Below the pieces are notes generated by a model that was not told the DNA's origin, searched no databases, and saw nothing but the letters and a program-made list of their open reading frames with translations. Shown piece by piece: positions 5,859 to 49,429 of a stretch of DNA of 64,000 bases. The translations under genes and the position numbers were made by a program. Origin of the DNA: Eledone cirrhosa (taxonomy: Eukaryota); the NCBI GenBank assembly GCA_964016885.1, contig OZ024763.1:2852001-2916000 (forward strand), read 5' to 3'. Positions within the stretch are counted from its first letter, which is position 1, and each line of letters opens with the position of its first letter.

Positions 5859-6091
5859 ATCTATATATATATGACTACCAACATTTAAATATAAGTTTAA
5901 AAGCAGAGGCAATGGAGAGGAGTTCCAGCTAGATCCTGTTAATAAAATATCCAAACAGATTATATACACAGCAAGTCTGTGATATCTGAAGGGCTAAATG
6001 TTAGCATAAGAGCTCCCTGGAGTCATGACCTGGATGTGACCCGGCCCCCTTTAGGGGAAGTTAAGGGCTGCAATACTGGCTTGAGGAAGGT

Positions 6092-6147
6092 TTCTGAAGA
6101 CCTTCTGCTGACCAGCTCTCCTGGGAGTTTCTTACCACTGTATATAT

Positions 6148-6188
<41 letters not shown>

Positions 6189-6349
6189 TACACACATACA
6201 TATACACAGTAGTAAGAATATATATATATATATATATATGAGAATATATATATAGTTAAAGGCTGAGATACTCGCTTGGGGAGGGTTTCTTCTTCTCTGA
6301 AGACCTTCTGCTGACCAGCTCTCCTGGGAGTTTCTTACCACTGTATATA

Positions 6350-6387
<38 letters not shown>

Positions 6388-6531
6388 TACATATACACAG
6401 TAGTAAGAATATATATATATATATATGAGAATATATATATAGTTAAAGGCTGAGATACTCGCTTGGGGAGGGTTTCTTCTTCTCTGAAGACCTTCTCCTG
6501 TCCAGCTCTCCTGGGAATTTCTTACCACTGT
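6092..6531. repeat. ~200-bp tandem duplication containing TA microsatellites
   Basis: tctgaagaccttct...ccagctctcctggga.tttcttaccactgt occurs three times. Confidence 0.75.
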
Positions 6532-6838
6532 GTCTATTATCATCACCATTTAACATCCATTTTTCCATGCTTGCATGGGTCAGACGGGTCGTCTGTGTTG
6601 AGGAACAAGTCTAGCCAGGATTGGCCACGCCATACCTTACTCTGAAGGGACTGTAAATTTGGCCGGGGTTTATAAAGCTGGATGCCCTTCCTAACACCAA
6701 CCACATTTACAGTGTAGGACATATATGTATGTGTACAACTCTCATATATTTTTCACGAAGTATATTGTTAGTGTGTTTCAGTTAATTTTAAAAGGGGTTT
6801 AATTAGTTAAAATAACTGACCTTTTTTTCTGTTTCCAG

Positions 6839-8385
6839 CTGTGGACCCTGTTGCATCCCCTATCAGCCTCAGTACTGCGGCTGGGAGCCAGATTTCATTT
6901 GAGAAGGATGGCGAAAACTACAAGTGTTCAATCTGTGGTAAAGCTTTTGGTTATAAAAATGGCCTGATTCGACATGTGCGGCTCACTCACGACAAGGAAC
7001 GTCCCTTCCAGTGTGACATATGCCACCGTCGGTTCGGCTACAAGAATATTCTCCTGGAACACCAGAACATTCACTTTGGTATTAAGCCTTATGCTTGCAA
7101 CCTCTGCGACAAAAAGTTTGCTGCTCGCTCCAACCTGGTGCAGCATCGTCTGATACACAGAAAACCGTATTGCTGTCGAATGTGCAACAAACGATTCGAC
7201 AAAGAAGTCCAGTTGCAGCGCCACCTACTCACCTGTCAAGGGGAAGCACTCCAGTGCAGTATTTGTAATTATGCAGCTAGCAATCAAACGTCGCTCAATG
7301 CGCACATCTTCGAAGCTCATCCACCGCAGTATTACGACACACGAGACAAAAACCGGGTCGACCTTGTTGGTGGAGATAACTCGACGGGCAGTCTGTCAAT
7401 TGTGTCCACCTGCTCGGCAAATGACAACGGCGGCGTTGGTGGTGGTGGTGGTGGTGGTGGTGACAATGTCCTTTCTTACAGCCTGCAGCTGAGCACTGAG
7501 ACGGAGTCGATGCGCAAGATAGACAACATCTGTTCGCAGTTAGCCAGTCGCAGTAACAGCACGACGCCTTCCAATGACAGCGTTGTCGGGGGAGCTACTA
7601 TAAAACAGGAACAGCCATCACCTTCGTACGATTCGCAGCCGGTGTTTCCAGTCGGAATAAGTGTCTCGAAAAACGAGCGGTGTTTTGTCGAGAACACACA
7701 CAGGCAGTATAGCAGTAACAATGGCAACAGTAGCGGTAGCAGTTCGGGTGGTGTCACATCGGAGGCTGCGTGTCGCTCCACCGGCTCCAGGCTGGACAGC
7801 AACAACAACAACAGCAACAACAATGCAAGCAGCCTCCGGAACAGCAGCGCCAGCAGTCCGCCGCATCCGGCCCTCGCGTCGACGACCATCGACGAGATGA
7901 TGCAGGTGATAGAAGTGTCGGCGACATCCGACCAGCAGACCCCCGCCCCGAACCGGAGCTATACGGTGCCGTCCCCACGCGACATCATGCCCAGCAACAT
8001 TGCCGACTCGACGAGCAGCCTGTCGGAGATGCTGTGTATGCTGCAGAACTTGATCCAAAAGTCCCAGGAGCTGGAACCTTCGTCTTCGTCGGCTGGCTTC
8101 TCCGTCACGATCACCCCGAGGAAATCGACGAAGGATGTTGCGACACAGTTCGCGACACCCATCGACGGCGTGCCTTTACTAGAAGACATGTTAGCCTACT
8201 ACATGTCGCAGGGTAAGATCTACAAGTGCAGTCACTGCGGGATTATTTTTCTAGAGCGGGGAATGTACTTCCTACATAATTCGTTGCACGGAGAATACAA
8301 TCCGTGGGAGTGTAGCATATGTCACAAGGTTTGTGCCGACAAGAACGATTTCCACCTACATTTTGTCAACCAGCAACACGTATAG
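6839..8385 (+). CDS. Terminal coding exon of an Ikaros/Hunchback/Pegasus-family C2H2 zinc-finger transcription factor
   Basis: Five N-terminal fingers (fourth is C2HC), a low-complexity linker and a C-terminal pair YKCSHCGIIFLERGMYFLHNSLH-GEYNPWECSICHKVCADKNDFHLHFVNQQH matching the Ikaros/Hunchback dimerisation-finger pattern. Branch point taactgac, polyY and ttccag acceptor end at 6838; stop TAG 8383-8385. The ORF-track GTG start is not the real start. Confidence 0.93.
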
Positions 8386-9029: not shown

Positions 9030-9273
9030 ACGACCAAAATCTGAAGAGGGCTTGATAAGGATTATATATATATATATATATAAGTGAATAAATAAATAAA
9101 TATATATATATATAAATCCGTAGAACAAACATTTATTATTAAAACAGATTAAAGTTTAAACAAAGAATTTCTGCTTTCACCCAATTACTTCTGAAACTGT
9201 TTCAAAAGATCCTGTAATAGGGTGAAAGCAGAAATTATTTGCTTAAACTTAATCTGTTTTAATAATAAATATT
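9030..9273. mobile_element. PLE-like fold-back remnant
   Basis: Inverted arms about 9131-9183 and 9220-9273; same family as 54335-54495. Confidence 0.6.
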
Positions 9274-10808
9274 GTTTTACTTGGGGAGGTTCATATTTGT
9301 GTAATAATATTGCCAGAATTAATTAATAACAGAACACACTGTTTGGTTGGTTTTCGCTTCTGTGTCTTTTATATCGGTTAATTTAATTTATTCAGTCCTC
9401 AATGTTGCCATTGACTGACCAACGGTAAAAAATACAGATATAATATAGACACAAACATATATATAGTCTACCAAAGTTCTTTCGTTGCACATCTGCAACA
9501 TCGTCAGAGGTGCTATTGTTTCCTCCTGTTGCATTGTATGTCTACGCCATCTTTATTTAGTGTTTATATATTTATTTATTTGTTTATTTTTTTGTCTTCT
9601 CTGCATTTGCGTGTGTGTATAGTGTTTTGTTTGATGTGTGTTTGGGTGATTGTGTATTGGTTATCTTTACTAGTGTGTGTTTATGTGTTTGTTGTTATTG
9701 TGCTTGTGTATGTATTTATTTATTTCTATTTCTCTTAGGTCAGTGTTGTTTGTTTGGGTGTTGTTATTCCATTCATTTTTTTCTGTTTAGCCTTGGCCTT
9801 CTAAGTTCTATTTCACTGGCCTCTCTGGTTTGCCTATCTGCTGGGTCATTTCTATGTTTAGATATTATTCTAATTTCTATGTTGTCTATGTTACCGTCGT
9901 GTTGTTGTCTGGCATGTTCGTATAGTACTGAACCGTTTTTTCGTCCTTTTAGTTCCCCCCAGTGTTGGTCTATCCTTTCACCTATGCTACGAGCTATCTC
10001 GCCTATGTATGTTGTTGTCATGTTTCTGCAAGTACCCTCTGTACATTTTATGCTATAGATTACGTTTCTAGTTTTACAGTTTATCCGGGGGTTTACTTTA
10101 CATATGATACATTTCCTATTAGTACAGTGGGTTTTCTTAAAAGGGTAGGTTTTGCTGATCAGGGATTTTATGGTGGTTCCTGGCTTTTCTACCACCTTAA
10201 TCTTTAAGTGGGTCTTTCTCAGGGCTTTTCTACACTGGTTAGCTAATTTCCCTCCAGGGGTAGCGTCCACAAATATGACACTCTGGAATCTCTGGTTGTC
10301 GTACCATGAGGTGGCTTTCCCTATCTTATGTCTAGCTCTATCTAAGCTATTCCATGATTTGCTCCTGTATAATGGGCAAATTCCTTTCATGTCCAGTTCT
10401 ATGAGGGTCTTATACTTCTCCGTGGCTCCTTCGTATACTCTGATTCTGTCTCTTTGGTTGTAGCCAGAGAACTGCATGCGGTTGATGAAGTGTTGGATGT
10501 GTCTTTCCATTTCTGTTGGGTCGCACATGCGGGACACGTTCTTCATCACTCGTACCAAGTCTGCGATCAGAATATTAAACTTAGCACTACTGGACATTGC
10601 TGAGTTTTTGAGTATCAGGTATTTGGAGGCCATGGGTTTAGCATAGTGTGAGTGGAGAATTTGGGCTCTCTCGTCTATAGTGTTAATCCAGAGTTCCGTG
10701 TCTAATACAGGTAGTCTATTGTTAGGGTGTTTGGAAGGGTAGTCGATAGTTACAGTTATAATCTGGTGTATGGAATTAGCTATCTGCTGGATGCTTTCCA
10801 TTGTGCTA
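9267..10808 (-). mobile_element. 5'-truncated Penelope-like retroelement (Neptune/Nematis-like): RT C-terminus, Cys linker, GIY-YIG endonuclease, 3' pLTR
   Basis: ITVTIDYPS...LPVLD RT motif; CxxxxCxxC linker; NVIYSIKC...YIGE...ERIDQH...HARQQH and E...P.LN are GIY-YIG hallmarks. Stop at 9773. A further 3'-end copy lies at 49010-49392. Confidence 0.9.
9470..9511 (-). ncRNA. Minimal hammerhead ribozyme motif in the PLE pLTR
   Basis: Minus strand: acct CUGACGA U GUUGCA gaug UGCAAC GAAA GAACUU uggu. Confidence 0.7.
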
Positions 10809-11385
10809 CTGCAGGTGTTGCTGTTCCGGAGGCTGCTTGAATTGTTGTTGTTGTTGTTGTTGCTGTCCAGCCTGGAGCCGGTGGAGCGACACGCAGCCTC
10901 CGATGTGACACCACCCGAACTGCTACCGCTACTGTTGCCATTGTTACTGCTATACTGCCTGTGTGTGTTCTCGACAAAACACCGCTCGTTTTTCAAGAGA
11001 CTTATTCCGACTGGAAACACCGGCTGCGAATCGTACGAAGGTGATGGCTGTTCCTGTTTTATAGTAGCTTCCCTGACAACGCTGTCGTTGGAAGGCGTCG
11101 TGCTTTTACTACGACTGGCTAACTGCGAACAGATGTTGTCTATCTTGCGCATCGACTCCGTCTCAGTGCTCAGCTGCAGGCTGTAAGAAAGGACATTGTC
11201 CACACCGCCGCCACCACCACCACCACTGCCGCCGTTGTCATTTGCCAAGCAGGTGGACACAATCGACAGACTGCTCGTCGAGTTGTCTCCACCAACAAGG
11301 TCGACCCGGTTTTTGTCTCGTGTGTCGTAATGAGCTTCGAAGATGTGTGCATTGAGCGACGTTTGATTGCTAGCTGCATAATTAC
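10808..11385 (-). pseudogene. Inverted partial copy of the zinc-finger exon (about 7265-7857) inside the PLE insertion
   Basis: Reverse complement aligns nearly base-for-base with 7265-7857; 12-bp in-frame deletion (ccaccgcagtat) and scattered substitutions. Confidence 0.93.
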
Positions 11386-11604
11386 GAAAGAACTTTGATA
11401 GACTATATATATGTGTTTGTGTCTATATTGTATCTGTATTTTTGACCGTTGGTCAGTCAATGGTAACATTGAGGACCGAATAAATTAAATTAACCGATAT
11501 AAAAGACACAGAAGCGAAAACCAACCAAACAGTGAGTGTGTTCTGTTATTAATTCTGGCAATATTATTACACAAATATGACCATCCCCAAGTATAACAAT
11601 ATTT
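11384..11604 (+). mobile_element. Inverted partial pLTR of the PLE
   Basis: Reverse complement of 9267-9485; starts at ACGAAAG within the hammerhead core. Confidence 0.9.
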
Positions 11605-12417
11605 GTTTCGACACGATTTCATATCAAAAACCTCGCAAAACTATATATAAATATATACATATATATTTTTAAAATGTGGGTAATTATTTATAAAGTATAT
11701 ATATATAGATATATATGTGTGTGTGTGTTGGCATGTTTGTCTTTATTTTTATATATATATATATATATATAGATCATCATCGTCGTTGTCAATGAAATAT
11801 GATATGATGGTTACATATATCCAAATATAGATAAGTGACCTGACAAAAGGAAGATGCACTCAATACATTTTATGAAGTTTATATCTGTATTAACTGTTTG
11901 CTTCAGGTTGATTGCCATTGGCTGGTTTGGATGAGGCTTGTTCTCATTGGCTGGTTCGGGTCACATGATAAAATAGGTATTTTCATGGCTGACCTTAACA
12001 AAATGAGTAATGTGGGACAACACCACTTCATTGTTTCCTGAAGTGGTCTGCCTTGCTCTGGTTAGAAATTTTGGTTCAATTAAGAATTTCCACAGAAACA
12101 AAGACGACGGTTGTATGCTCCATGATATGTGTAGATTGGGGTGGGAGAAGGTTTGTTGAGAATATTCCAGGTTTATAACAATTCTCTGAGGAATTTCCTT
12201 GTCCTAGAGTCTCCAGATGAAAGGAGACAGAATTTTCTCTGTCCTTGCACCTGAAGGAATTCCTTTGGAGTGAACCTTCTTTTAAAGTTATAAATCCCCG
12301 GCCGTATTGACGGCCCTCGTTGGAGCAATGTATGGCAGGGCCAACTCTAGTCAGATGTCTACCCCATGCTAGCATGGAAAAATAGACATTAAACTGTGAT
12401 GATGATGATATATATAT

Positions 12418-12706: not shown

Positions 12707-13000
12707 AGTATTTCCGTAGAAAAGGTAAAGGAAAAAAGAGTGCTCTATGTATTGTACAGAGCTATTTAATTACATAATAAACAACACAATATAATTATTT
12801 CATTATTGAAGGTTTCAAGAAACTAGATGATTCTTGCAAGAAACATCCAGTTCGTTCGTCGGACAAAATAATACATTTTGTAAAATAAGAATACATAATT
12901 ATTTTGTCTGAAGAATGAACTGGATGTTTCTTGCAAGAATCACCTTGTTTATTGAGACCTTCGATAATGAAATAATTATATTGCGTTGTTTATTATGTAA

Positions 13001-13462: not shown

Positions 13463-14553
13463 ACTTTGAATAACTTTGAAATGTTTTGGCCAGTATCGGC
13501 CCAGGCCATGTCTAACTTAATAGCACCACCTGGCGAAGTCTTTCAATTCAGGATTTGGGCATCATGGTCCATTCAAGAAGGGAATTACTGTTTGCGGAGA
13601 CATATCTGGGTGTGGGTGGTTTGTCCGGGATTACTTGGAGGAATTTGTCCAAAGACTTCTTGAATTTTGTGTGGTCAGTTTCTGTTTTGACGTGTCCTGG
13701 TGTGATGTTGAAGAGAGCAGGGCCAATTGAGGTGAAATAATTGTGCCGTATTGTTGTTATGAGTTGCGATTTAGATTTTTGTTTGGGACGGATAGCACGG
13801 GGCCCAAGCCTTGGGTGATTTTGAAGGTGATGCCAACATCATTTGGGCAGTGCTGATGAAACATTTTCCACATCATGCAGATAATATAACGCTCATGGCG
13901 ACGTTGGAGTGAGTAAAGTTTCAGCTTTTCTAGTCGACCGCAGTAGTCAAGGTCTGACATGCCATCTATCTTTTGCCCTTTGGGGAGCTTCAAGTTTCAT
14001 GATACTTTGTTTCATGTGGGGAGACCACAGTGGACAACAGTATTCAAGGTGTGGTCGGGCAAAAGTGGAGAAGAGAAGGATAATGGTGTGGGAATCTCTT
14101 GACTGGAAGGTTCTGAGGATCCAGGAACACATTCTGCGGGCCATGTCAACTTTGCTGCTTATATGCGTGGCCCAGCTTATGTTGCTGTCCACGGTTACTC
14201 CAAGTCTCTGATGTTGTTAGATGCCACGAGAGTTTCACCGGAGGGAAGGGAGTACGGGAGTTTCAGAGCATCCTCTTTTCCAAAGTGGATCAGTTCGAAT
14301 TTGTCTTCGTTCAGTAACATGTTGTTCTTTTCCGCCCATTGAGTAACAGCCAGTAGGTCTGACTGAAGGCTTATCCGGTCATCCACGCCATTGATGACCT
14401 TTTGGAGCTTGGAATCATCAGCGAAAATTCTAATGTTGCTGTGTTTGATGATGTCATTAATATAGATGATGAAGAGAAGTGGGCCCAACACAGTGTCTTG
14501 TGGGACCCCACTACTGACTTTGGCTGGGTTGCATTTGACTCCTTCGACTACAA
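13463..14553 (-). mobile_element. CR1/L2-group LINE, RT C-terminal fragment with frameshifts
   Basis: [32 protein letters not shown] and LYSLQRR motifs in successive frames. Confidence 0.9.
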
Positions 14554-14554
14554 C

Positions 14555-14914
14555 ATGTATATATGTATGTTTATATATATATATATGTATATATATGTAT
14601 GTATATATATATATGTATGTTTATATATGTATGATATATATGTATATATATGTATGCATATATATGTATGTATATATATATATGTATGCATATATATGTA
14701 TGTATATATATATATGTATGTATATATATATATATATATGTATGTATATATATATGTAGATATATATATATATATATGTAGATATATATATATATATATA
14801 TGTAGATATATATATATATATATGTAGATATATATATATATATATGTAGATATATATATATATATGTAGATATATATATATATGTAGATATATATATATA
14901 TATATGTATATGTA

Positions 14915-19364: not shown

Positions 19365-22300
19365 AATAATAATAATGAAATATTGTGTACAGTGCTCAGG
19401 TGCACTACAACTCATCAAAAAGTGTATGTATAGTACATAGGGTAATGTACAAACGTCAGGAAAATGAACAGTGCATGAGTCACGATATACACGTGTGCAT
19501 GTTTATGGAAGGGGTACATCAGGTGTAGTTTTGGCGTATTTCGGGAAGCATGAGTGTTTTAAAGGATGCAGTGTCTCGGCAGCTAACAACTGACGCAGGC
19601 AGTTTGTTCCATGCTTCAGCAACTCTGAGCATGAAAAAATGTTTCCGAAAGTCATGGGAGCTGTGCTGTTTTCTGATTTTGTAGGCATGTCCACGTGTGT
19701 TAGACACATGGAGATCAAAAAGGTGCTCAGGGTTGTTGTTGGCGAGATGGTTAATAACTTTGTGGGTGTTTACCAAGTCCATTGCCAGACGTCGGAGCTT
19801 CAATGAATCCATGCCCAGGGAAGCAAGGCATTCAGAGTATGGTAGGTGTCTGATGGAGGGTATGCGCTTGGTTGCACGTCTCTGAACAGTTTCCAGGCGG
19901 TCAATGTTCTGAGCAAGATGGGGGTTCTAGACTGATGATGCGAATTCCAAGTGTGGTCGTACCATAGCTGTATACAGTTTTAAATAGATGGCTGGAGAGC
20001 GGCTAACAAAGGTCTTGCTGAGTGATGCCAAGACACCCTCAGCCTTCTTGACAATCTTAGAGACATGCTTTGTCCAACGCAAATCGCTGCTGACAGTAAT
20101 GCCCAGGTCACGTTCACAAGAGGACTTCTTGATATCAGTGTTGTGGAGGGAGTATGTGGACGCTGGCTTTTTCCTCCCAAAATGCATGGTGGTACACTTG
20201 TCCACAGCCAGCTTCAGTTGCCAGTCTGTGATCCATTGCTGCATTGTGTCCAGGTCTGATTGTAGGAAAGAGTTGTAGATTTCAGGATCAGTCCTTTTGA
20301 TTTCAAGGTACAGCTTTATGTCATCTGCATATTTCAGTACCGTGGCATTCTGTAAGTTGGTATCTATGTCATTAATATATGCCACAAACAAAAGGGGACC
20401 AAGAACAGATCCCTGTGGTACACCAAATGACATCTCATATGGTGAAGAATGCTGTCCTAGAACCGTGACTACCTCTTTTCGGCTGAGAATGAAGGATTTC
20501 AACCAGTCGAAAAGATCATCCCTCACACCTATTGCAGAGTTTTGCCATAAGTCTTTTGTGTGGCACAGAATTAAAAGCCTTAGCAAAGTCAAGGTAAACA
20601 ACATCCACCCATGAGCCGCTGTCAGTGATCCGGGTGATGTATTCAAGGAACTCGATAAGCTGATCACAGCAGCTGGAGTTAGGGATAAATCCAAACTGCA
20701 AGGGCCGGATGAGGCTGTGAGAGCTCCAGAAGTTCCATCACATCTCCAGAGTTATACATCTCATGCCAGTTTGGGCACTGTAGCTCAGTGCAGTACAAGT
20801 TCCAATTTGCTCTCTTCCAATCAAAGCAAGCAGATTGGAGATGGCTCTGGTTTTTGTTGCTGCCCGCAAGAGCCAGATTGGCAATGATCAGAGTCGCCTA
20901 GAGGTTCCTCAGTAATACAACTGATAACCACTTCAGGAGTCGTGGTGAAGATCAGGTCCAAAGTGTTGTCACCTCTTGTTGGAGAGGTGACCAGTTTGAG
21001 TCCAGCACTAGTTCAAGGCAATCATTTGCACTCTGTGGCCAACGAAAGGTTTCCCAATCGATCTCAGAATAATTGAAGTCACCTGCAATAAACACACAAG
21101 TGGCTGTTTTCCTGGCAGCAACTCTGAGGATATCGCAAAGCTGTGTGTCCTGATGGTAGTTTGGGGGGGGGGGGCGATAAACAACACCAAGCAGAAGTGT
21201 TGACATGGTCATACATATGTCACAAAAAAAAACTTTTTCTTGTGATTCGTTCAAATCAACACAAGGAATTACCGAAAAGTTTGAACGAACGTAGACCATC
21301 ACACCACCACCACCACGGCGATTAATGCGGTCCTTGCGCAAAAGGTTGTACCCAGTAATGCTGAAAACCCCATCACAGAGTAAGGAATGTGCCCATGTTT
21401 CCGTGACTGTGATGAAGTCAGGGTCGATGCTTCTGACGTAGGAGTCAAACAGATGTATCTTGTTGCATAAACTGCGAGCATTAAAGGACAACAATTTGTG
21501 CCCTGCTTGCAGTTTATGATGGTGTGTAGAGGGTGGCAGGTTGTTCTGGTTTAGTTTCCCAGAGTTGTTGCGGTTTTTTCATTGCCAGTTATTGTGGGTA
21601 GAGCACACTCAGACCAGCTGGTATCTCTCTTCCCTGTTTCACCAGCCTTAACAAACCTCCAGATCTGCCCATCATCACGCAGACTAAAACTTTCATGTTG
21701 TGCTGAGTTCCGATTCAAGGAAGCTGCAGCACGTAGCTTTGGACGTACATGGGGTGGTAGGCCTGGTCGGAAGGTAATCCGATTTTCACACCCAGCTTTA
21801 ACAGAGGCCAGTGGTGGTGGTGATGTTGTTCCTCCACGGGAATGGTAGGGGAAGACACAGTCGCCGGTTGTTGGTGTCGAGATGTACTGGGAGCGGAAGA
21901 CATGGGTCTTGTTGTTGTTTCTGATGTTGTCCCACAGGAATAGCAGCAGAAGCCAGTGTCATAGGTTTTTGCCGTTGTTCAGTAACAATGGTAGAGGAAG
22001 ATACAGTCATCGGGGTTTTTTTGTTGTTGTTGTTTTTCAATAACATTGGTGGAGGCAGGTACACAGGCCAGGCACTGAAAGGACCAGTTTGTTAGCTGGA
22101 CCATCTCCCAGAGTCTATCCATCGTAGCAATATGATGTTTCTTGTTTTGGCCTGGGATCCTGCGGAAGCCTGTGGCGCATTGAAGGAGACAGAGATGCGA
22201 CAGGTTCCACATTCGACCCAACAATTACGGAACGAGTTTTCGGGTTCCGTACAGATATGGCAGATGTGATCTTCTGGACAATGTTCTAATTTGGAACATC

Positions 22301-48963: not shown

Positions 48964-49009
48964 GAGAGAGAGAGAGAGAGAGAGAGGTAAAATCCTAGCT
49001 TGTCATATA

Positions 49010-49387
49010 CACACACGCAAACGCATGCGCAAAGAAGACAAAATAAAATAAACAAACAAGCAAATAAATAAATAAATATATAGACAGACTGAATAAAAAA
49101 TGGCGTAGACATACAACACAACAGGAGGAAAAAAATATAACACCACTGACGATGTTGCAGATGTGCAACGAAAGATTTATGTAAATTATGTAAACTATAT
49201 ATATGTGTTTGTGTCTATATTGTATCTGTATTATTTTTGACCGTCGGTCAGTCAATGGCAACATTGAGGACCGAGTAAGTTAGATCGCAGATATAAAAGA
49301 CAGCGAGAAGCGAAAACCAACCAAACAGTGAGTGTGTTCTGTTATTAATTCTGGCAATATTACGCAAATATGACCCTCCCCAAGTAT

Positions 49388-49392
<5 letters not shown>
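49010..49392 (+). mobile_element. 3' pLTR of the same PLE family as 9267-10808, with a hammerhead core at 49146-49173
   Basis: Reverse-complement similarity to 9270-9620; the 3' end ccccaagtataacaat runs directly into (AT)n. Confidence 0.85.

Positions 49393-49429
<37 letters not shown>

Follow-up and report, generated by a model that had tools for sequence, protein, structure and literature searches.

In Eledone cirrhosa, a Penelope-like element (PLE) inserted downstream of a zinc-finger gene carries, between its truncated body and an inverted pLTR arm, a reversed copy of a piece of that gene's coding exon, and three further copies of the same PLE family carry unique DNA from their own neighbourhood, likewise inverted, at the 5' junction. 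On balance we lean towards the view that a local DNA strand was copied when a loose end folded back during PLE integration. Coordinates given without a locus name refer to the window, the whole stretch of 64,000 nucleotides that was analysed (contig OZ024763.1 of assembly GCA_964016885.1, positions 2,852,001 to 2,916,000 of the forward strand).

The insertion, its donor and its age

The donor is intact, and its protein is 87% identical to the Octopus sinensis 'DNA-binding protein Ikaros' (P0001). An acceptor-like polypyrimidine-AG, read from the sequence, stands at 6821-6838 ahead of the exon, and the preceding intron contains at 6085-6530 a tandem duplication of about 200 nt around a TA tract. 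The first-pass annotation had described a reversed zinc-finger exon piece inside a PLE insertion, with its donor about 3 kb off and with a 12-nt deletion, and this is confirmed by alignment: 10808-11385 (minus strand) aligns to 7265-7857 (plus strand) with 22 substitutions in 578 columns and with deletions of 12 and 3 nt. In the alignment of the copy region, similarity to the donor flanks is absent outside 7262-7857. The donor stretch lies 1.4-2.0 kb from the left target end. When the 3.0-Gb assembly was searched with 7000-8385, only the gene and this copy were found, besides two simple-repeat matches of 31-32 nt, and the exon piece was present in none of the 29 other PLE loci examined. The structure is real, the position of the exon copy beside the PLE being taken from the assembly. 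The copy holds no whole zinc finger and is without PPQY and several residues common to the gene and P0001/P0002.

Table 1. Features of the insertion and of its donor (window coordinates; a point marks features given without strand)
Feature	Position	Strand	Remark
Donor gene, intact: coding part of last exon, Ikaros/hunchback-like C2H2 zinc-finger gene	6839..8385	+	521-aa frame, Pfam zf-C2H2
Donor stretch: end of zinc finger 5 and low-complexity linker	7265..7857	+	
Left flank: older hairpin repeat	9107..9265	.	3402 first-look candidates; flanks of 19 other members
3' pLTR of PLE	9264..9560	-	ends at common tail-less family end
Hammerhead-like core CUGACGA / stem II / GAAA	9480..9507	-	by eye; hairpin appears in computed fold
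5'-truncated PLE ORF	9773..10809	-	RT thumb, CX4CxxC linker, GIY-YIG with CCHH
Inner junction	10808..10809	.	2-nt microhomology, GT in exon and PLE sense
Inverted copy of 7265-7857	10808..11385	-	in frame with PLE remnant
Outer junction	11384..11385	.	2-nt microhomology, AC on + strand
Inverted pLTR arm with tail (tail about 11607-11643)	11384..11643	+	second cDNA, likely independently primed
Right flank: degenerate (TA)n target tract	11644..11666	.	

The insertion spans about 9266-11643 and is set in a TA tract 0.9 kb beyond the stop codon of the zinc-finger gene. It consists of a 5'-truncated PLE body, the reversed exon piece in the middle and the inverted pLTR arm (Table 1). The interval drawn before, 9267 to 11604, was right as to structure but too short on the right, where the inverted arm reaches about 11643 if its tail of about 37 nt is included. 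This family tail is present in the right arm and absent from the left pLTR. In the family the ends cluster at few pLTR positions, mostly abutting (TA)n, and both ends of the window copy fall into those classes. The repeat in the left flank (noted over 9030-9265) is very common in the genome, often has a CTGAAGAG-like motif before it and is TA-bounded; it may represent a fold-back end belonging to another PLE family. In the flanks of 19 other members that were compared, its right arm often has (TA)n immediately behind it. Since the flanks of our insertion rejoin to this usual layout and both ends are common family ends at TA, the whole is regarded as one insertion, and the empty site would have been hairpin-(TA)n. 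The right and left pLTR arms differ at two sites, and at each of them both variants are widespread in the family (0.28/0.70 and 0.64/0.34); one more family-polymorphic site falls at the left end itself. These two differences, together with the tail in the right arm only, indicate that the right arm was not copied as DNA from the left pLTR; it was probably primed separately on RNA.

Both junctions are short overlaps. The AC microhomology that had been noticed at the outer junction is borne out and stands two bases before the GAAA of the hammerhead-like core. The 'patchy similarity' reported for the inner junction, on the other hand, dissolves into the copy compared with its donor, with three substitutions; when the breakpoint is fixed by comparison with intact family copies, a clean 2-nt GT overlap is obtained. 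Elsewhere in the window there are another pLTR fragment of this family, standing solo (49006-49399), a hairpin of about 120 nt around an AT-rich core (12825-12945) and frames resembling, by eye, remnants of LINE reverse transcriptases (13500-14620 and 19500-20750).

The PLE body (10809-9264, minus strand; 2742 first-look candidates) has, among the matches listed, 40 others over most of its length with 97-98% identity. Compared with intact family copies it is truncated 23 codons after the YVDD motif, and the insertion is therefore without the reverse transcriptase (RT) active site. The single ORF with RT and C-terminal GIY-YIG that marks EN+ PLEs is recognized in family copy L059, where a weak RVT_1 match (E 4e-4) was obtained and YVDD lies upstream of a GIY-YIG-like motif. 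By eye the endonuclease frame reads VIYSIKCTEGTC...YIG...QH...EH, which is a CCHH motif with two cysteines inside GIY-YIG, and it is preceded by the linker CTNRKCIIC (CX4CxxC). The Atlas neighbours of the PLE protein carry PF26215 and PF01541, the GIY-YIG domain standing at 48% in one cluster; the homologues found bear no clade names. A Pfam scan of the window fragment gave no match and left the endonuclease unrecognised, and an Rfam scan did not detect the hammerhead-like pLTR motif (fold z -1.74), which is known by eye only; minimal PLE hammerheads have been described (PMC4209133, available text). The pLTR, the inverted 5' copy and the one-sided tail are traits of EN+ PLEs. Judged from its motifs, the element is an EN+ PLE with a Neptune/Nematis-type linker and (TA)n targets, the CCHH motif, a CX2-5CxxC linker and (TA)n targets being given as Neptune/Nematis criteria in the accessible part of PMC8557442. 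In one long family copy a stretch rich in asparagine, a few hundred codons long, is found upstream of the RT core (L055:3146-4130); it recalls the N-rich inserts of Adineta Penelopes (PMC3846280, in part).

In its PLE parts the insertion has 17 private substitutions in 1586 sites (1.1%). By our own informal reading, about 9 of the 22 exon differences look gene-side: two CpG losses, position 7377 and six differences within the GGT tract, in which the copy is nearer to the O. sinensis protein or retains CpGs. At 7377 the T of the gene seems private to the assembly; the gene-type contigs of runs X2 and X4 have one difference fewer than expected, consistent with the C of the copy. The remaining about 13 copy-side changes in 578 nt are not significantly above the PLE rate of 17 in 1586 nt (Fisher P 0.058; non-CpG P 0.33). 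About 11 of these 13 are non-synonymous (site ratio 454:134), so purifying selection on the fused frame is not seen and a functional chimeric gene is rejected. The frame of 549 codons that runs through the exon copy and the PLE remnant can be ascribed to chance: the odds of being in frame are one in three, the same PLE segment is also open in 20 of 95 other copies, and the window frame stops early in an A-run when compared with L059 and L060. The product has not spread and decays neutrally, and it is most likely a dead by-product, for which the earlier term 'exon capture' says too much.

Recurrence in other copies of the family

The 5' junctions of 149 distinct copies, including that in the window, were classified (117 + 32), after duplicates, 33 + 11 loci with the 5' junction outside the locus, and loci L381-L410 had been left out. 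In 55 of the 117 junctions the join is straight to an inverted PLE piece and in 4 to a direct one; 21 abut TA, and the other 37 belong to other kinds. From the 148 other copies, 42 were read with 10-20 kb of context; these were picked for unexplained outer junctions and are not a random sample. The scan for other PLE insertions with inverted neighbouring DNA that the first-pass annotation had suggested turned out positive: 3 of the 42 have a long unique local filler at the 5' junction, 240-720 nt in length and from 0.7-7.5 kb off, and all three are inverted. Of 8171 control positions taken from these regions, 19 gave inverted and 8 gave direct matches, from which 0.10 would be expected in 42 copies (P 1.4e-4; against all 149, P 0.005). 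For fillers whose donor is no more than about 8 kb away, the rate of 3 in 148 other copies is a minimum.

The three cases differ in their details. In L096 the filler is 238 nt from 4.9 kb, and the order of TA, tailed inverted arm, filler and body is that of the window copy, with a TAC overlap. In L017 about 260 nt come from 7.1-7.5 kb, beginning in a TA tract, and in L072 there are two successive pieces from 0.7-1.3 kb; neither L017 nor L072 has an inverted arm at the filler junction. With the window included, 4 of 4 long fillers are inverted, and the donors lie on both sides of the element. Filler and donor differ by 2.9-3.4% at the other three loci and by 3.8% in the window, against 0.9-1.2% private change in the PLE bodies, which would be compatible with filler and PLE of one age if two diverging branches and allelic difference are allowed for. 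The donors of L096, L017 and L072 are AT-rich non-coding DNA, and in 95 frames scanned near them no host Pfam domain was found, only transposon domains and one sub-cutoff match. Between the L096 donor and the insertion there are frames for a PIF1 helicase of Helitron type (L121:5030-7110). The L017 donor (L129-L130) has received a later insertion of about 180 nt with a 16-nt duplication, of which the filler retains the empty state.

Many more candidates were discarded as fillers: L067 (196 nt, inverted, but of a repeat family and 9.2% diverged), L062 (mostly TA and repeat), L105 and L076 (repeats), L097, L181, L203, L021 and L009 (palindromes at the site), L175 and L198 (under 85%), L233 and L006 (tandem arrays), L247 (two LTRs of a later insertion) and, set aside as too short, L219 (63 nt direct, repeat-like) and L226 (30 nt inverted). 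The later insertion in L247 (L313-L314) is an element with two 98.6% identical, LTR-like direct repeats of 419 nt inside the inverted PLE arm. For L354 and L325 no abutting local copy was found, and twelve more copies, checked inside their own loci of 3-4 kb only, had no long unique filler. Short inverted pieces of the element's own body are present at the 5' junctions of L010, L019, L063, L071, L173, L208, L213 and L233; they may be due to self-priming of the cDNA, which has been described for PLEs (PMC3846280, in part), or to re-priming on RNA.

Origin of the local filler

What has been observed are two outward-facing PLE ends with a unique local filler between them, 2-nt microhomologies at both joins, although two-base overlaps are common by chance, and the recurrence in the family. 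An inverted copy of near-break DNA joined by short microhomology, by which fold-back insertions are recognized, is what the window copy presents. The fold-back would proceed as follows. The GIY-YIG endonuclease would cut the TA tract, and both target ends would prime reverse transcription in the pLTR, the left end yielding a cDNA of 1.5 kb and the right end one of 260 nt with the tail. The 3' end of the long cDNA (..AC) would then pair with GT at 7856-7857 on its own attached plus strand and, with this template bared by resection or an R-loop, about 590 nt would be copied by RT or a repair polymerase. Finally, the new end would be displaced and annealed via 2 nt to the short cDNA, and the gaps would be filled.

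When a 3' end pairs with its own strand, the resulting copy is always inverted, whichever side of the break the end is on. The fold-back is thus favoured by the finding that all four fillers are inverted, that their donors are on both sides and that the donors at the other three loci are non-coding. It should be noted, however, that the cases number only four (P 0.06 against 50:50, and about 0.24 given the inverted-leaning control of 19 versus 8), that one short direct candidate, L219, stands against the all-inverted pattern, and that 2-7.5 kb of strand have to be exposed. Later insertions may have lengthened these distances (e.g., the Helitron-type ORFs at L096).

The first-pass annotation had proposed an in-cis template switch by the PLE RT onto the local nascent transcript or DNA during integration. 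Of this, local copying in cis at integration is supported, whereas to name the PLE RT as copier or the transcript as template would go further than the sequence does. Its distinction from 3' transduction also holds, the piece being at the 5' junction, unique in the genome, from beside the target and between outward-facing PLE ends. A jump of the PLE RT off its own RNA and onto the nascent zinc-finger transcript is a possibility that we take seriously and yet regard as unlikely. Read against the long cDNA, the filler has the sense of the mRNA, transcription of the gene runs from the donor to the break, and a nascent RNA tethered to the same broken fragment would yield the same orientation; moreover, template jumps have been proposed for PLEs (PMC3846280, in part), and the internal inverted PLE pieces at many 5' junctions point to frequent re-priming. 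RNA and plus-strand DNA at the donor have identical sequence. Since both insertion ends are cDNAs, either of which could switch template, orientation alone does not identify RNA, and the suggested test for a bias toward the transcribed strand is weak for the same reason. Marks of RNA are absent: only 1 of the 22 differences is A>G, there is no poly(A) and no intron is crossed, the latter being uninformative with respect to splicing because the piece lies within one exon. And the donors of the other three fillers, AT-rich and non-coding with only transposon domains nearby, speak against it, although they may lie in introns of long genes.

Invasion of a neighbouring duplex by the cDNA or the target end during the same integration (SDSA/MMBIR or Pol theta type), as has been proposed for templated insertions of L1 (bioRxiv 10.1101/2024.08.27.596794, in part), appears improbable. 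Such an invasion would need no long resection and the short overlaps fit it, but it predicts both orientations, and all four long fillers are inverted. A filler-less insertion could also have been patched later with the exon piece at a break between the inverted arms, as such arms can be fragile. This we consider quite improbable: the filler is not younger than the element, the Fisher comparison (P 0.058; non-CpG P 0.33) pointing in the opposite direction, and L017 and L072 have no inverted arm at the filler junction. Least credible of all is an older independent inverted duplication, or a second gene allele placed beside the PLE by the assembly, for while the exon divergence of 3.8% exceeds the 1.1% of the PLE and one X3 contig joins copy-type letters to an apparent upstream continuation of the gene (574-nt overhang, as in the X2 gene-type contig), similarity to the donor flanks ends at 7262-7857, the loss of PPQY and of several residues shared by the gene and P0001/P0002 would be surprising in a live allele, the X3 contig is equally expected from bubble-popping of gene and copy (X2 shows a mixed contig), and the same arm-filler-body layout recurs at L096.

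Eight sequencing runs, of 15 listed, were examined for independent support of the copy. Copy-type letters with the 12-nt deletion turn up in contigs of sample S1 (X3 record 10, with 0 differences over 11240-11385, and X2 record 2), at a depth similar to that of the gene-type letters, which argues against sequencing error. No contig or read piece spans either junction; this is uninformative, as one junction lies in skipped repeat and low-depth links into high-copy repeats were dropped. In two RAD runs the copy had hardly any coverage (2 gene-type reads), and X5 and X6, from other organisms, covered the parts belonging to the PLE and almost none of the exon copy.

Possible consequences and comparison with known systems

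On the plus strand, exon and copy can pair over about 580 nt, and to judge from the sequence a duplex with the pre-mRNA of the gene would be the only plausible effect of the exon copy. AATAAA signals stand ahead of the insertion at 9087 and 9095, so that only read-through RNA would form this duplex. Coleoids are known for heavy A-to-I recoding. It is tempting, but in our opinion doubtful, to assume that two-ended PLE integration routinely yields kilobase-range fold-backs of the flanks and that PLEs supply editing-complementary sequences for A-to-I recoding, or siRNA, in cephalopods. If this were true, about 2-3% of the copies, which is tens of fold-back events in this PLE family alone, would be concerned, and with a downstream exon copy, read-through pre-mRNA would fold over the coding sequence into a duplex of 580 bp with 96% pairing.

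The available parts of PMC11167929 and PMC8557442 state that the way in which PLEs seal their 5' ends is unresolved. Local fillers show what comes within reach of a free end during this sealing, and in a family with thousands of young copies the type of template can be tested by counting orientation, distance and direction of transcription. In a small way, such events also add local inverted duplications in the vicinity of genes.

In the largely open-access literature searched, we found no description of local inverted fillers in PLE insertions; the sources compared in the following are cited from the portions accessible to us. EN+ PLE insertions (PMC3846280, PMC8557442, PMC11167929) share with those described here the 5' truncation, the inverted arm, the tail at one end, the AT or (TA)n target, two preferred RT start points and, as far as it can be read by eye, a hammerhead-like motif. 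For example, the anole element has two start sites and a tail (PMC11167929), resembling the end classes of our family. In these insertions the arm joins the body directly, as in 55 of our 117 junctions, whereas the window copy has a local filler in between. Host DNA enclosed by pLTRs is known from Penelopes of Adineta vaga (PMC3846280), where it forms a spacer before the 3' pLTR or comprises whole genes captured in trans, adjacency of the donor not being demonstrated in the text at hand; the window piece, in contrast, is at the 5' junction, local, inverted and unamplified.

In yeast, a resected end at a double-strand break can self-anneal, be extended, be displaced and be joined with 0-5 bp of microhomology, as postulated here (PMC11724301). 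The yeast pieces are, however, mostly 5-34 bp, start from a 10-bp inverted repeat that lies within 53 bp and primes them, and involve no retroelement. Templated insertions of L1 in tumours likewise incorporate a non-element template at integration, but the 22 among about 3,600 insertions are typically shorter than 250 bp and from within 15 bp of the site (bioRxiv 10.1101/2024.08.27.596794), as compared to our 240-720 nt from 0.7-7.5 kb. Fold-back and templated pieces at human L1 insertions in cultured cells (PMC11702581) also consist of local DNA inverted at the 5' side of a retrotransposon, in one case with twin priming; the authors' own model is self-annealing after resection, and a resection of 6,271 bp beside L1 is reported (Fig. 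S9C legend). There, three inversion and three templated cases were described, whereas here a germline PLE is concerned, with 4 of 149 copies and one coding exon. The window insertion is the PLE counterpart of a by-product of repair already known for L1, notable chiefly for its countable recurrence over kilobase distances.
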